Made by a program: the position numbers. A stretch of 64,000 nucleotides of DNA from Escherichia coli (GTDB lineage: Bacteria > Pseudomonadota > Gammaproteobacteria > Enterobacterales > Enterobacteriaceae), in the NCBI RefSeq assembly GCF_024502345.1, contig NZ_JALDNN010000003.1; one strand, 5' to 3'. Of this stretch, positions 45,001 to 51,000 are shown piece by piece. Numbering within the stretch: position 1 is the stretch's first letter; each line of letters starts with the position of its first letter.

Positions 45001-48000
45001 GCTTGCTGGTTAGCCGGGGTATTTCACGGCATAAAACTTTTAAATGTTGCCGTGATAGCAATGTTGTCGGGTCAGAACAAAACGAAAGTTAAGGCAACTT
45101 CAACAGGGCTGATTACGGTGGAAGAAAAGTAACTTTTCTCTTGAGAAGAAATAGGAAAAGCAGAAATTAGGACGATTAAATGAGGTGAAATGTCAGCAAC
45201 AGGCGATGATTGTCCATCATCGTAAGGGAGGGTACAGGGTGCCGCTGCCTTACTGGCATCATGTTGATGTCCAGCTCTTCATACCCGTTTGTACCTTAGC
45301 CGGAACTGTTGTTCAGTACAGGTAAAAGTTGTAATAACTCCCCGCTCACTGCCGGGGAGTCATTTTAAATCAGCACGGCGCCATCAGAATAGATTAGCTT
45401 TCAAACCAGGGCGAATCGGCAGAGTTCGCAGATTCTTCACTTTGCTGTGACTCCCCCAGAAATTGCACTTCACGTACTGGTTTACTTTTCCCCAGGCTCC
45501 GCTGGAAATCATCCATCACAAACTCAATATCATCACGGTCCTCAGGCAAGACAGGCGAACTTTTGGACATAGTCTTTCCTTCAGTTAAAAGCGTTCTGCA
45601 TACAGAACGCGGACGGAGACGGCAGTGTTGTCAAACTCATTATCGAAGGTATCCATCCACTCGGTCCTGAACCCCTCGCCCAGCAGGTTATCGATCCCCT
45701 GAAGGGACAGAGGCAGGACGGCAGCTAAACGCCCGCCGGGAACCAGATGAGACGCAGCGGCCAGCAGATGCAGCTTAGCCCGGTTGTCAGCAAAAGGAGG
45801 GTTCATCACCACGCAATCAAATTTCTGAATCTGATTCGCCGCCGACCAGGCCAGAAAATCGGCTTCCGTGGTCTCGTAACCTTTAGCCCGGGAGACCAGA
45901 CAATTCAGTGTATCCAGTTCGATGCCGGTTACGTTGACACTTTTCGGGAAACATTGAAGCAAATCCCCGTGCCCAATATTGGGCTCCAGCAGCCGTTCCC
46001 CCTCCCCGGCCGCAATAATGGATGCGACGTATTCACTGAGTCGCGCCGACGACGGATAAAACTGGTGGGATTTAATATCAGGCATGGCGCCCATATGTCC
46101 GATGAAGCGCATCACTTCGGTCGGGTCATAATCAAACGTCACATGGTAGCTTGTCACTCGGGCACCGAGAAATCGCAGAACATCCGCGTTCACCTGCCGC
46201 GTTTTATCAGCGTTCTCACCGGCATAGCCGAGCGATGTCCAGCTGGACCATTCCTTTTCATTCTGGGTAAAATCCAGCTCTGCAAGCTGCATCCGTGAAT
46301 GAAAATCGATGCAGCGTTTCAGTGCCGGGAACTCCTGCAACGTCGCTTTGGTATGGGCCACGCGTTCAGCAGGCAGAGCCAGAGGGACGATGGCAGCAAG
46401 AATGTTGTTAAGCCGTTCGGCGATATCAGGATGCACATCAATGTGCATCGATCCGTTTTTGTAGACCCGAAAACGAATACTGTTGCCATCCAGGCTGATC
46501 CAGTTTCTGAATCCAACATGACCAACCATATTCTCAACCATTTTTTTCGTGTCATAGACCGGTTTAACTGTTTCGCCCCGGAAATAAGAACAGATCACCC
46601 GCAACTCCGAAAGTGGCATGAGGCCGGATTCTTTAAACTCAACCTTCAGTTTTACCCATTTGTCTTTCACGCCTTCACATACGCCGGAGGTGATCATGCG
46701 AGTAGAGAAGCCAAATGCTTTATTGGTTTTGTGTTGACGGCTTAATGACTGAAAGACGGCATAGACACGATCTTTAATGAACTGATGCCGGTCATTGAGC
46801 AACGCGACAACCGTGGTAACAACAGCATCGAGTGTAAAATCAGGGATCTCCTGAGGAGGAAGGTGGTAACGGTCAGCAGTAAACTGCTTATCCCATTCTT
46901 TCTTCTTTTCGTCAGACATCACAGACAGTACATCGGTCAGGGCCATGACCCTCTTCCAGTATTCTGAACGCAGCGCGTTTTCTGCGTAGCTGGCATCCGC
47001 TTCTGAAATGAGATGATTGTATCCGGAGAGGTATGAATAGAGCTTCTGATTCCCGCATTTCAGGAACTGAGCGGACATGGACCTCAGTAAGCTAAGCTCA
47101 TCGTTATATGATTCGACCTGCCTGTTAATGACATCGAGCTCTTCCCGCATTTCGGGCAGGAAGTTATCGTCGTTAATAAGGAGGCCAGTATGAGGCATAT
47201 AAGCAACCAGAGAACTCCCAGGGGCACCCATTGGCAGGGAATCAGATTCAACAGCAGACATAGCACCAGTCCTTTTTGAAGGGTTTATCTGATACCAGGA
47301 TAACAACCTTGAACAAAAAGCTAATAGGTTGGCTGACATGAAAATGGAGAAATTAACACTGCGGAAAGTCAGAAAGACAGATGTGGTTTTAATCAGAAGA
47401 AACGGGCCGGAGACAGGACAAAAAAACCCCTACATAGTAGGGGCAACGGGGGGAGAGCCTGGGTGGCTCGCTCTAAAATATCGTACTTCTTATTGTAGGC
47501 TTCTCACACTCTGAAATAATTCATTTAAGCCTGTGCTGGGGGGGGGGGGCGGATTGCGGTTCTCCGCCATTTTTATCGTTTTTCTTGGTTTTGTAAGTCA
47601 CTTTTTCCCCTTTCAATCGGGCTTGCCGATTTTCGGCCCGGCGAAGCTGCTTGTTTTCTGATTCCGTAATCTCACTTTGCAGGTTCTTGAGCATCTCCAA
47701 CATGCTCCGGTTCAGCGTAAAGGTAATTTCTTCATCTTCGCTGGAGTCGGTCACCTCCGGCAACTCGATATCACCGAGTTTCTGCAATAGACTCGTCGTA
47801 ATGAGTTTGACCCCTTCGACGGCTTTTGTAGCGAGAACTGGTGGAACACGTGCGGGTTTAAAATCGGAAGGGACAACACGGATCTGCCCGCGTGGCGTTT
47901 TCTTAATCTGGATACCGCTTGAATCAGCCTTTTCAAGGTCTGCGATCATCTTTTCGATCCGCGCAACAGCTTCCGTTTCACCGAACTCATCGATAAGGGA

Positions 48001-51000
48001 CAGGACTGCTACATAGGAAATGGCATCGGCATGGATCAGTTTTTTGAGATAGACACAGCAGCCGGTCAAGCGAATAAGAGCAGCAATGGTGGTATTACTT
48101 TTTCCCTCACGTTCGGCAATACGGTCAAGCGACCATCCACCCAGCGCCTGAAGACGTCGGTAGGATTCACCCAAAGCCACAGGAGAAAGAGCTAGGCCAC
48201 GGTTTCCGTCAATCGTTGTCAGTTCGCAGCTGATCTCATCGGCTTTCATCTCGATGCAAAGAATGGTGAGGTTAGAATGCCCTTCTGCCACAGCCATCAA
48301 AGCAGCCTTTAAACGGCAATGTCCCTGGCGAACGTACGGAATGCCGTCTTTGATCAGAACGCGGATAGGGTCTACGTAATCACCCCGGATGTACGCATTC
48401 TTGATGTTATTGAGATGATCGGCGACTTCTGGCAACTGGTAATAAGCTTCCCCCATTCCCATCTCACGGGAGTTGAATCCTTCCGTGATTTGAACCACGG
48501 TTGGGCTGATAGCCCATGCTTTCTGTTCAGTGACTTCATTACAAAGGTCAGGGTTCGCGTCGCGGAACTGCTTCATACCACTGACGAATCGGCCGGAACC
48601 GGTCACTGTTGAAAAAGACACGAGTGGGGATTTAAAGACCCGTGAGTTAGTTTGCTGTTGGGAATCAGTCATCAGATCACTCATAGATACTCCGTTGAAT
48701 TCTTTTTTGTCATACCTTTCATCTGTGCGTGAATACTACCGGAAAAAAAAATCTCACTTTTTCGTTAAAAAGGTACTTTTTGGGTCTATTCCGAATTGAA
48801 CGAGGAAAATTGTTCTGGCGATCAGAACAAAAAGAAAAAATAAATCAAATAAAACAGATGGTTATGGTTAATTCGTAAAGGATAAACTTTTTTCTGAGAA
48901 GTGAAAAAAAATTAAAAAATGTGTCGAAATGACAATCTCGTTAACAAAAGCCACGTTTTTTCCTGCTCATACCTTATTGGTAGCAATCCGCCTTTCGGTA
49001 CCATAAGTGTGGCATACCGATAAAGCTGAACGGAGAAGACTCGTTGCGAAAACATACACCAATCATCAAATGGGCGGGGGGTAAAACCAAACTGATGCCG
49101 TTCCTCAGTAAGCACTTCCCACATGATAAGAGCCGACGCTGGGTTGAACCGTTTATCGGCGGTGGCGCCGTGTTTCTGAACATGTTTGCCACCGAGGCTC
49201 TCCTGGCAGACAGCAACCCGGACCTAATCAATCTGTACCGCAACATACAGCGAAATAAACCGGCATTCATCAGAGAAGTGCAGCTGCTGGCGGAAAGGCA
49301 TTTTGAAGAAGAGGATTACTACGTGCTGCGGAATACCTTTAACAGCACCAGTTTTGATGATGCCCCGCTACAACGAGCAGCCATTTTCTACGCGATGAAT
49401 CGACTCGGATATAACGGTCTGTGTCGTTACAACTTGAAGCGAAAGTTCTCAGTTCCATGGGGAAAGCGATACCAGTTCAGTCTGGATATCCAGAAGGTTG
49501 ATTACCTCTCATTCAGGCTTTCGAGCGTTGAATTGAAAACCGCAGATTTTGGTCAGACGCTGGAGTTTGCAGGTGGTGGTGACCAAATATATTGCGATCC
49601 GCCATATGACAAAATCAGTAAAACCAGCTTTGTAAGCTATGATGGTATACCGTTCGATAAGAGCGCACATGTTAAACTGGCGGATATGCTGGTGGATGCT
49701 AATCGTAAAGGGGCCTCAGTGGCCATATCCAACAGCATGACTCCCTTTACGCTGGAGCTCTATGAAGAACGCGGTTTTGATATTCATACTCACAACGCTT
49801 ATCGGTCTGTCGGCAGTCAATCAAAGTCGCGTAAGAAGGAAATAGAAATTCTGGCCGTCCTTCGTTGAGCGGCGATCAGTAGTTAGTCGATCGGGCTTAT
49901 CCATTCCTCGAAGCTCAGCACTTCGGAATGGTCACGGCTGGCATAGGGAATAAACTGAAGCTCTTCAATTGATCGCTCCCCTCTCTTACCTTCGCATATA
50001 AACGATATGAACCCCTGATCTGCAAGTTGGGTAAGGACATTCATGATTCGTACGTTCACTGTATGCAACTGAAGATCATTCACGATATCGGTAATTTTGT
50101 GTGAATGGCGCCGGGACTTTCGCAAATAATCAAAGATGACAAACTGGGCATTCCGTCGCTTCAATAATTTTTCCGTCATAAATTCCTGAATTAATCCCCC
50201 CAGCAACATCAGGAACGGACGAAGTACCCCAGGGAACGTTAACGTATAAGACTGCGATGTTTTGACCAGAGTGAAGGACGTCAGGAAGCTGAAGTTTAGT
50301 CGCTTCTTTGAATACGGGACATAAACAGCCAATGTCGTAGACAAGTAAGTAAGCAATTCTTCCAGATGAGCGCGTGTGATCATGACCGTCTTATCGCTAT
50401 TACGAAGACCGTGATAATCAATAAATGCCACTCTGGCACGACTCAGCCACTCGTGAATGCTTATGGATACAGTGAACGGTGCGTTTTCATCGGCAGAAAT
50501 GACGCCGTGCTCAGCGAGTTGGTTATGGATAAGCATAGACAGCTGGTAAAATGGAAAACGGCAGGATGGATGACACTGTAGGCCAGTTAGCGTTAGCTTT
50601 GCATTATCCAAGTCATCGAGCGGAAAAGTAACTTTTCGGGAAATAATTTTTGCTGACGTTCTTGCTGACTTGCGGATGAACCCAAGTCCAAGATCATTTT
50701 GCATATATCACTCCGTTTTAACAAAATCTCCTTAACCTATATGTTAAGAAGAGACAAAAAATTAAAAAATATAATTAATAAGATTATCATTTTTAATTTA
50801 AAAGATTAGTTAATAACGGGTGTTGAATTTAAAATAAATCGGCTTATTTTCGGAGTGTAAAACCGGGTAAAAACCCGATGCGTGAGCAACAGATTTGACG
50901 TGAGTGAGTCGGCACGACAGTGCAGAAAGCCGGTGGCTAATGTAAAAACGGCCTGTATTTGGGAGTTCCGGTCACTAGACACCAGGCTATGCTGTTAATT

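Follow-up and report, generated by a model that had tools for sequence, protein, structure and literature searches.

A conserved IncHI plasmid block with two orphan adenine methyltransferases and a hypothetical protein predicted to have a Rep-like fold

We have analysed a 64,000-nucleotide stretch of an Escherichia coli contig (NZ_JALDNN010000003.1, assembly GCF_024502345.1), to which we refer as the window, and in it a group of four genes encoding two N6-adenine DNA methyltransferases (MTases), a ParB-like protein, and a hypothetical protein of 273 amino acids (aa). On balance, we favour the view that these genes belong to a conserved backbone block of IncHI plasmids, which carries two orphan MTases and no restriction enzyme, and which provides protective and housekeeping methylation. 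The 273-aa protein, whose gene lies tail-to-tail with that of a Dam-family MTase, is predicted to be a DNA-binding protein with the fold of a replication initiator, and not a nuclease. The four genes are as follows.

45585–47261, minus strand: orphan N6-adenine MTase of 558 aa, with an N-terminal DUF4942 region and a C-terminal gamma-class domain (DUF4942-MTase)
47521–48684, minus strand: ParB-like paralogue 2 of 387 aa, an orphan ParB/Spo0J-type DNA-binding protein (phrog_1033, 4e-30)
49044–49868, plus strand: Dam-family (D12 class) N6-adenine DNA MTase of 274 aa with a TTG start (PF02086, TIGR00571), orphan, predicted to methylate GATC
49883–50704, minus strand: 273-aa protein, a DNA binder with a double winged helix (WH1-WH2, Rep-initiator-like) and not a nuclease, according to its predicted structure

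Results

The four genes are part of a syntenic IncHI block

Positions 45000–54500 of the window match IncHI1 plasmids, including pHCM1 (NC_003384) and R27 (NC_002305), over their full length at 99.8% identity. In all, 282 plasmid records match this segment, 219 of them at an identity of at least 99%. All four genes are carried and annotated in both R27 and pHCM1, where they are labelled “DUF4942 domain-containing protein”, “DNA-binding protein”, “Dam family site-specific DNA-(adenine-N6)-methyltransferase”, and “hypothetical protein”. The original prediction, made from the sequence of the window, had proposed four open reading frames (ORFs) here, with an NPPF motif in one of the two MTases and a tail-to-tail arrangement of the Dam and 273-aa genes. 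All of this was borne out by our ORF calls (45585–47339, minus strand, 584 aa, NPPF; 47521–48684, minus strand, 387 aa; 49044–49868, plus strand, 274 aa, DPPY; 49883–50704, minus strand, 273 aa) and by the annotated copies in R27 and pHCM1. The gap between the convergent Dam and 273-aa genes is 14 bp. The near-identical annotated copies, together with the same gene order in divergent homologues, indicate that the four ORFs are real genes.

The module is bounded on one side by a Rep3-type rep gene (53520–54395) with flanking iterons, beside the Tra2 transfer genes, and on the other by the gene for a large Ig-like protein (42492–44996). Between rep and the 273-aa gene lies a group of genes that is upstream of the latter, has the same orientation, and is part of the conserved block, as judged from ORF calls, family searches, and synteny.

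50987–52985, minus strand: upstream co-oriented gene group as a whole
50987–51694, minus strand: Zn-finger-like protein of 235 aa
51691–51891, minus strand: ORF of 66 aa
51909–52985, minus strand: ParB-like 1, 358 aa

The order of the block is thus rep, ParB-like 1, the 66-aa ORF, the Zn-finger gene (~238 aa in relatives), and the 273-aa gene, which converges with Dam, followed by ParB-like 2, the DUF4942-MTase, an ORF of ~57 aa, and the Ig-like gene. This order is kept in full in L004, a metagenomic plasmid of 237 kb, and in two Salmonella-type contigs (L005 and L006). It is also kept in L007, which lacks the Rep3 gene beside the block, and, up to the end of the contig, in L008, the most distant relative. 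The whole block remains syntenic in relatives in which the 273-aa homologue is only 25–63% identical. In PLSDB, the 273-aa gene was found in 1,393 records, 1,390 of them at an identity of at least 60%, and the DUF4942-MTase in 1,389 records at the same threshold; the band of 60–80% identity holds 1,109 records for each gene, and the two distributions match. Judged from these matches, nearly all of the ~1,390 plasmids with one of the genes would also carry the other. Our searches of the literature brought up no functional work on these IncHI genes.

The Dam-family enzyme is predicted to methylate GATC

The Dam-family protein scored 183 bits against PF02086 (cut-off 22; 9.5e-54) and 230 bits against TIGR00571 (cut-off 115; 2.9e-68). 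Its score against the model for the chromosomal Dam equivalog (171 bits) is far below the cut-off of 441, so the plasmid enzyme is not the housekeeping orthologue. It nevertheless aligns from end to end with both E. coli Dam (E-value 8.5e-41) and DpnM (1.2e-40), and it retains the DPPY catalytic and FxGxG S-adenosylmethionine-binding motifs. It differs from E. coli Dam, to which it is ~34% identical, in being plasmid-borne and in its TTG start.

The residues of E. coli Dam that contact GATC are said, from work by Horton and colleagues in 2006, to be K9, Y119, N120, L122, R124, and P134. In our alignment, the equivalents of K9, of Y119-N120-G-L122-C-R124, and of P134 are all kept in the plasmid enzyme, which therefore shares with E. 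coli Dam and DpnM the lysine, the whole Y-N-G-L-C-R-Y-N hairpin, and the proline downstream of it. Across the alignment of the IncHI Dam family, N120, G121, C123, R124, Y125, N126, and DPPY are invariant. Because the contact residues are conserved, GATC is the predicted specificity of the plasmid Dam.

A Rep-like fold is predicted for the 273-aa protein

In Pfam, NCBIfam, PADLOC, and PHROGs, the 273-aa protein had no matching family, and nothing credible was found among PDB sequences. Among the PLSDB matches listed, its gene is annotated as “hypothetical protein” or has no annotated feature. The family is very small: homologues formed 14 clusters in a search of 5.8 billion proteins, and when 1.84 billion proteins were searched exhaustively with a profile, 9 representative clusters were recovered.

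An AlphaFold2 model based upon 11 homologues (mean predicted local distance difference test score [pLDDT] of 78, predicted template modelling score [pTM] of 0.75) comprises an N-terminal beta-hairpin, a domain of helices and four strands, a long helix, and a C-terminal winged helix with the order helix-helix-helix-strand-strand. When it was compared with the PDB using Foldseek, the top match was RepE of plasmid F (E-value 9e-4), followed by domains 2–3 of RctB, the WH1 domain of MSBI1.176, and WH1 of RepA from pPS10. Two independent structure searches agree on the Rep-like fold, and there is no nuclease among the leading matches. Since both halves of the model are winged helices, it leaves no space for a catalytic domain. 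We also aligned 12 sequences of the family, down to an identity of 25%; 22 residues are invariant, and they include no conserved PD-(D/E)xK, HNH, or GIY-YIG pattern. From the model, we predict that the 273-aa protein is a DNA binder with the double winged-helix fold of Rep initiators such as RepE, RepA, and RctB, rather than a restriction enzyme.

Its relationship to Rep3 proteins is only suggestive at the sequence level. Profile alignment with hhalign placed the 273-aa family collinearly on the Rep3 profile from WH1 to WH2 over 194 columns, but without significance (probability 19%, pairwise E-value 0.0013). Neither Rep3_N nor Rep3_C of Pfam was matched, and BLASTP found no similarity to the adjacent Rep, so that the protein is not demonstrably a member of the Rep3 family by sequence. 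The 273-aa protein also differs from Rep3/RepE initiators in the setting of its gene, which has no iterons beside it, whereas a genuine Rep3 gene 2.8 kb away has iterons of its own. In a repeat scan, iterons were confined to the surroundings of the rep gene (53520–54395), and there were neither iterons nor direct repeats near 49883–50990.

Is the 273-aa protein the restriction partner of Dam?

The original prediction had left two alternatives for this gene pair, an orphan Dam or a cryptic type II restriction-modification (R-M) system, in which the 273-aa protein would be a GATC-type endonuclease restrained by the convergent Dam. It suggested that the protein be searched for nuclease folds by profile and by structure. 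Those searches have now pointed to a non-nuclease fold, at the level of predicted structure. The resemblance to an R-M system lies in the layout, since in DpnII and MboI systems, too, a Dam-family MTase is convergent with a gene of ~270–290 codons. Likewise, the size of the 273-aa protein suits MboI/DpnII-type enzymes, sequence searches assign it to no family, and the pairing, with its gap of 14 bp, is kept in all relatives with intact loci. In contrast to the endonucleases of those systems, however, the protein gives no restriction-enzyme signal in PADLOC or Pfam, its two domains are predicted winged helices with no nuclease among the top structural matches, and none of the three nuclease patterns occurs among its invariant residues. 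The arrangement itself is of little help here. Although it is present in every relative with an intact locus, including the most distant, among the relatives examined it was never found outside a single inherited syntenic block, and thus provides no independent evidence that Dam and the 273-aa protein are a functional pair.

A plasmid from Photorhabdus (L003, contig JASNMP010000008.1) also bears upon this question. By tblastn and translation, its Dam homologue has one in-frame stop ahead of DPPY and its DUF4942-MTase has two frameshifts. There is also a stop in ParB-like 1, a change of frame in the Zn-finger gene, and an insertion sequence (DDE_3) upstream of the 273-aa gene, whilst the 273-aa, ParB-like 2, and Ig-like genes are intact. 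We considered selective decay of the two MTases, but dropped the idea, as ParB-like 1 and the Zn-finger gene are lesioned as well. A broken Dam next to an intact 273-aa homologue would speak against an endonuclease, but the evidence is weak, since the locus appears to be in general decay and Dam of the host could compensate and protect the DNA. Taking these observations together, we regard a cryptic R-M pair as very improbable. The alternative of an orphan Dam, without a restriction partner, is supported by a neighbour that has no nuclease family, fold, or motif.

Could the 273-aa gene simply be the degenerate remnant of an earlier Rep3-type replicon, unrelated to Dam and adjacent to it through inherited synteny? 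Such an origin would fit a Rep-like fold that has no detectable Rep3 sequence signal and no iterons nearby. It would equally fit a pairing confined to one syntenic block, in a plasmid group that a review describes as multi-replicon. A relic, though, would hardly be expected to remain intact and at full length in ~1,390 plasmids and in relatives down to 25% identity, to keep 22 invariant residues, and to stay intact where its neighbours decay. The intact, conserved ORF argues for purifying selection on a working protein, and we consider a relic improbable.

The DUF4942-MTase is an orphan enzyme with its conserved extra region at the N-terminus

The original prediction described the second MTase as a protein of 584 aa directly downstream of ParB-like 2. 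The two genes are indeed adjacent; however, they are separated by a spacer of 259 bp between the stop of ParB-like 2 (47521) and the MTase start, and the protein is most likely shorter. While the longest ORF runs to 47339, RefSeq and all homologues begin at Met27 (window position 47261), which we take as the start of a protein of 558 aa. Pfam identified DUF4942 at residues 122–316 of the 584-aa ORF (7e-23), together with weak matches to small MTase models. The protein matches the “DNA methyltransferase” family phrog_6263 of PHROGs (8e-115), as well as type II and orphan MTase models of PADLOC.

The catalytic domain of the DUF4942-MTase aligns best with M.TaqI. In an alignment of ten sequences, motifs X (HQFYPSS/TP), I (LEPNIGHG), and IV (NPPF/Y) follow one another in the order of the gamma class, with NPP(F/Y) in a Rossmann-fold domain, as in M.TaqI and its relatives. 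It differs from these enzymes in that only ~70 residues follow NPPF, too few for an M.TaqI-type C-terminal target-recognition domain, and in that its additional conserved region is N-terminal. This DUF4942 region, which gave no structural match, is probably the part of the protein that recognizes DNA.

Full-length homologues of the DUF4942-MTase are solitary genes in the phages SSU5, Touem01, MR13, and 2_D05, and in plasmids of Pseudomonas and Citrobacter; no ParB-like or nuclease gene is annotated beside them in these phages and plasmids. It follows that the DUF4942-MTase is an orphan enzyme, which need not have a ParB-like partner. The gene most constantly found beside it is a small acidic ORF, absent from the original prediction, which lies just beyond its stop.

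45394–45570, minus strand: acidic ORF of 58 aa, 14 nt past the stop of the DUF4942-MTase
47426–47444, minus strand: terminator-like hairpin GCCCCTACTATGTAGGGGT, with a stem of 8 bp, then TTTTTTT, between the stop of ParB-like 2 and the MTase start

The 58-aa ORF was found in all IncHI-type relatives examined (56–58 aa in L003, L004, L005, and L007), overlaps the MTase stop in L004, and is annotated in R27 and pHCM1. The protein contains 13 D/E as against 6 K/R residues and belongs to no Pfam family; M1, D14, F17, D20, F22, K30, P31, and N49 are invariant.

Two side observations concern related genes. The plasmid pACV-OXA-48 (L018, NZ_CP045727.1, 28206–38910) carries a gene for a 286-aa protein that consists of DUF4942 and has no MTase domain. 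This gene, which is directly downstream of a DGQHR-domain gene split by IS1, clusters with ssb, an antirestriction gene, DUF1380, Hha, DUF3085, and a JAB-domain gene. The DGQHR domain is part of the ParB/Srx superfamily. In addition, R27 encodes a Dcm-type cytosine MTase (141140–142567), beside thermonuclease and phospholipase D genes, which, with the two adenine MTases, brings the plasmid to at least three MTases.

ParB-like 2 is a predicted orphan DNA-binding protein, not an obligate MTase partner

Both ParB-like proteins match phrog_1033, ParB-like 2 at 4e-30 and ParB-like 1 at 9e-24, and they are paralogues, with 34% identity over 194 residues. ParB-like 2 scored 22.5 bits against HTH_ParB (cut-off 22.6), and aligns weakly with Spo0J, with GHCRLKA in place of GERRxRA as box II. 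There is no ParA gene adjacent to ParB-like 2 or elsewhere in the block; its neighbours are Dam and the DUF4942-MTase. A review names Par1 and Par2 as the partition modules of IncHI plasmids, separate from these genes. Three places per IncHI record match ParB-like 2, which means that a third locus exists.

Homologues with 31–33% identity occur in IncFIB/IncHI1B plasmids of Klebsiella and in IncC plasmids. In one of the former (L020, NZ_CP061949.1, 188191–199291), the ParB-like gene is located between Tra2 and Ig-like genes, in a reduced block that has neither of the MTases and in which no gene of the size of the 273-aa protein is annotated. The orphan ParB-like protein of IncC is 31% identical to ParB-like 2 over 305 aa (E-value 2e-33). 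Its gene, which is distinct from a nearby pair of ParA and KorB-domain genes, lies ~1 kb upstream of an orphan MTase of the Mrr_N+N6_N4 type, within a long array of co-oriented genes, of which mobI is the first and three encode MTases.

Among the ParB-like proteins of plasmids that have no ParA, the best studied is HerB/YfjB of plasmid F, a CTP-binding host reprogrammer of 652 aa encoded in the leading region. The IncHI proteins resemble it in having a ParB-type N-terminal region with a helix-turn-helix and no adjacent ParA. They differ in their length (358–387 aa, as against four domains, D1–D4, in HerB, of which D3 and D4 are extra), in having GHCRxKA or GHCRYRA for GERRxRA, and in being encoded far from oriT. 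By architecture, judged on length alone, the IncHI proteins would not be members of the HerB family.

The original prediction had paired ParB-like 2 with the MTase. One can imagine that the two, perhaps with the 58-aa protein, act as one unit, the ParB-like protein serving to load or target the MTase on plasmid DNA. The two genes are adjacent in all IncHI-type relatives, the homologous IncC gene is also ~1 kb from an orphan MTase, and on the pOXA-48-type plasmid a DGQHR-domain gene, of the ParB/Srx superfamily, precedes the DUF4942-only gene. Against such a unit, a terminator-like hairpin separates the two genes, DUF4942-MTases of full length stand alone in phages and in other plasmids, the IncFIB/IncHI1B Klebsiella plasmid has the ParB-like gene without an MTase, and in Photorhabdus ParB-like 2 is intact beside an MTase with two frameshifts. 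The relation between the two genes is thus a weak one, and a single unit seems to us unlikely. The pairing of ParB-like genes with orphan MTases would rather be a recurring theme of MOBH plasmids, and not an obligate unit.

GATC clusters adjoin both rep genes

The window contains 219 GATC sites as against 271 expected (ratio 0.81), which is mid-range among 4-bp palindromes. This frequency is unremarkable, and thus says nothing for or against restriction pressure. The sites are, however, clustered as GATCAA-type repeats upstream of both Rep3-type rep genes.

53273–53361, no strand: cluster of 5 GATC sites in 89 bp, beside iterons at 53382–53472 and upstream of the rep gene at 53520–54395
39556–39713: second cluster, of at least 5 GATC sites, upstream of the second rep gene (39859)

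The first of these clusters is kept in L003, L004, and L005, as 4–6 GATC sites within ~90 bp. The rep-proximal clusters are candidate targets of the plasmid Dam, and the conservation of the first suggests that the origins are Dam-sensitive and that methylation matters there. A third cluster, of five sites in 88 bp inside the 66-aa ORF (51759–51846), was set aside as probably incidental, as it is confined to IncHI1 and relatives have only 1–2 sites.

These clusters raise the possibility that the block is primarily a replication-control module, in which Dam serves mainly the GATC clusters of RepHI1A/RepHI1B-type origins and the 273-aa protein is an auxiliary origin-binding protein or a methylation-sensitive regulator. 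The five sites beside the iterons, the conservation of this cluster in relatives, and the similar cluster before the second rep gene all fit this proposal, as do the location of the block, which abuts a rep gene in most relatives, and the initiator-type fold predicted for the 273-aa protein. On the other hand, neither iterons nor other repeats turned up near the 273-aa gene, L007 has the block with no adjacent Rep3 gene, and enterobacterial hosts already provide Dam. We consider replication control as the main role to be rather unlikely.

Conserved intergenic elements

Two intergenic regions deserve a separate description.

50899–50920, minus strand: single-copy conserved element CTGTCGTGCCGACTCACTCACG, between the stop of the Zn-finger gene and the 273-aa gene
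48685–49043, no strand: divergent intergenic region between ParB-like 2 and Dam, with presumed promoters and one conserved block near the ParB-like 2 side

The first element follows the pattern CTGTCG-N4-GAC-N-C-N-CTCACG, which has one exact match per plasmid in L001–L009, at the equivalent position, and is invariant even in relatives in which the flanking DNA has fully diverged. The bases around CTGTCG form a hairpin of 5–6 bp, in which 4 of the 6 pairs show compensatory changes, and a second, terminator-like hairpin is found ~25 nt after the element. An Rfam scan of the block gave nothing credible and no family for the element, which may bind a protein or else function as RNA or single-stranded DNA. 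It is conceivable that the 273-aa protein and the plasmid Dam are a plasmid-private epigenetic control pair, in which the former would, for example, regulate the GATC-rich IncHI origins or this hairpin element according to their methylation state, but we think this improbable.

A second conserved block, AAAAATGATAATCTTATTAAT, is located at ~50775–50795 (minus strand), close to where the promoter of the 273-aa gene is predicted. On visual comparison, 13 of 19 positions agree with the Fur-box consensus, and the block may be just an AT-rich promoter. A similarity of 38 nt between the upstream regions of Dam and the 273-aa gene was dropped as an AT-rich chance match, since relatives do not conserve it.

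The block resembles leading regions in content, but not in location

ParB homologues and orphan MTases are typical of the plasmid DNA that is transferred early in conjugation, and the MTase families of leading regions have been described (Samuel et al., 2024). The original prediction had likened the pairing of ParB-like 2 and the MTase to the anti-restriction modules found there. In gene content, the likeness stands: the block contains two orphan MTases and two ParB-like genes, and there is the parallel in IncC. Its position is different. R27 encodes the MobH relaxase at 103.9–106.9 kb and mobI at 107.7–108.1 kb, and according to a paper on Rts1, mobI of R27 directly adjoins oriT. The module, at 43.2–48.3 kb of R27, is therefore separated from oriT by ~60 kb on one side and ~115 kb on the other, and is not among the first ORFs of the leading region. 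We conclude that it is not a classical leading region, and that it is like leading-region islands in content and unlike them in location.

Orphan MTases are enriched in plasmids, where they protect against restriction. Those of IncA/C, a set of three, and M.EcoGIX of pESBL have been shown to help the plasmid past restriction by the recipient, and others have been proposed to do so; in IncA/C, deletion of the MTases abolished transfer to other strains. Like these, the IncHI MTases are stand-alone enzymes of large conjugative plasmids, encoded near ParB homologues. They differ in type, since the IncC enzymes are a beta-class Mrr_N+N6_N4 MTase and Dcm and those of IncHI a D12 Dam and a gamma-class DUF4942 enzyme.

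Discussion

In the account that we favour, the two MTases would methylate plasmid DNA, such that it survives restriction upon entering, or residing in, new hosts. Dam may, in addition, maintain methylation of the GATC clusters next to both Rep3 origins. As for the 273-aa protein, it would most likely be a regulator that binds DNA sequence-specifically, and not an enzyme that partners Dam. The ParB-like proteins would be paralogous orphan DNA binders, and the adjacency of ParB-like 2 and the DUF4942-MTase would reflect co-residence in a block for plasmid establishment and maintenance, and not an obligate two-component system.

Several observations weigh against this account. The benefit of a plasmid Dam is not obvious in the usual hosts, which already supply Dam, and a distance of ~60 kb from oriT is unfavourable for very early expression. 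The strict pairing of Dam and the 273-aa gene in every relative would also fit a functional link, and is inseparable from shared ancestry. The Rep-like assignment derives from a structure predicted from 11 related sequences and has weak support at the sequence level, and the specificities of both MTases are predictions. Finally, the single-molecule real-time sequencing methylome of S. Senftenberg ATCC 43845, which has an IncHI2 plasmid with a mapped dam, contains only GATC, CAGAG, ATGCAT, and three type I motifs. Each motif was assigned to a numbered ORF, although according to that paper GATC could not be assigned unambiguously. No motif is left for a plasmid DUF4942-MTase, and if the gene is intact there, it may be silent in vegetative growth; M.EcoGIX has been reported to be silent in donors.

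Three of our observations are new: a hypothetical protein that is widespread has a predicted Rep-like fold, an acidic 58-aa ORF is coupled to the MTase, and an intergenic motif that contains a hairpin is conserved. IncHI plasmids spread multidrug and colistin resistance, and much of their conserved backbone is annotated as just hypothetical. The block has two orphan adenine methylases and no restriction enzyme, which removes a misleading R-M reading. Roles that can be tested are suggested in its place, namely evasion of restriction in the recipient and methylation of GATC-rich replication origins. For the hypothetical gene, which is present in ~1,390 sequenced plasmids, a Rep-like DNA-binding fold provides a concrete starting hypothesis. 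Lastly, the parallel with the ParB-like gene and orphan methylase of IncC suggests an establishment theme that is shared by MOBH plasmids, and which could be a target for limiting their spread.

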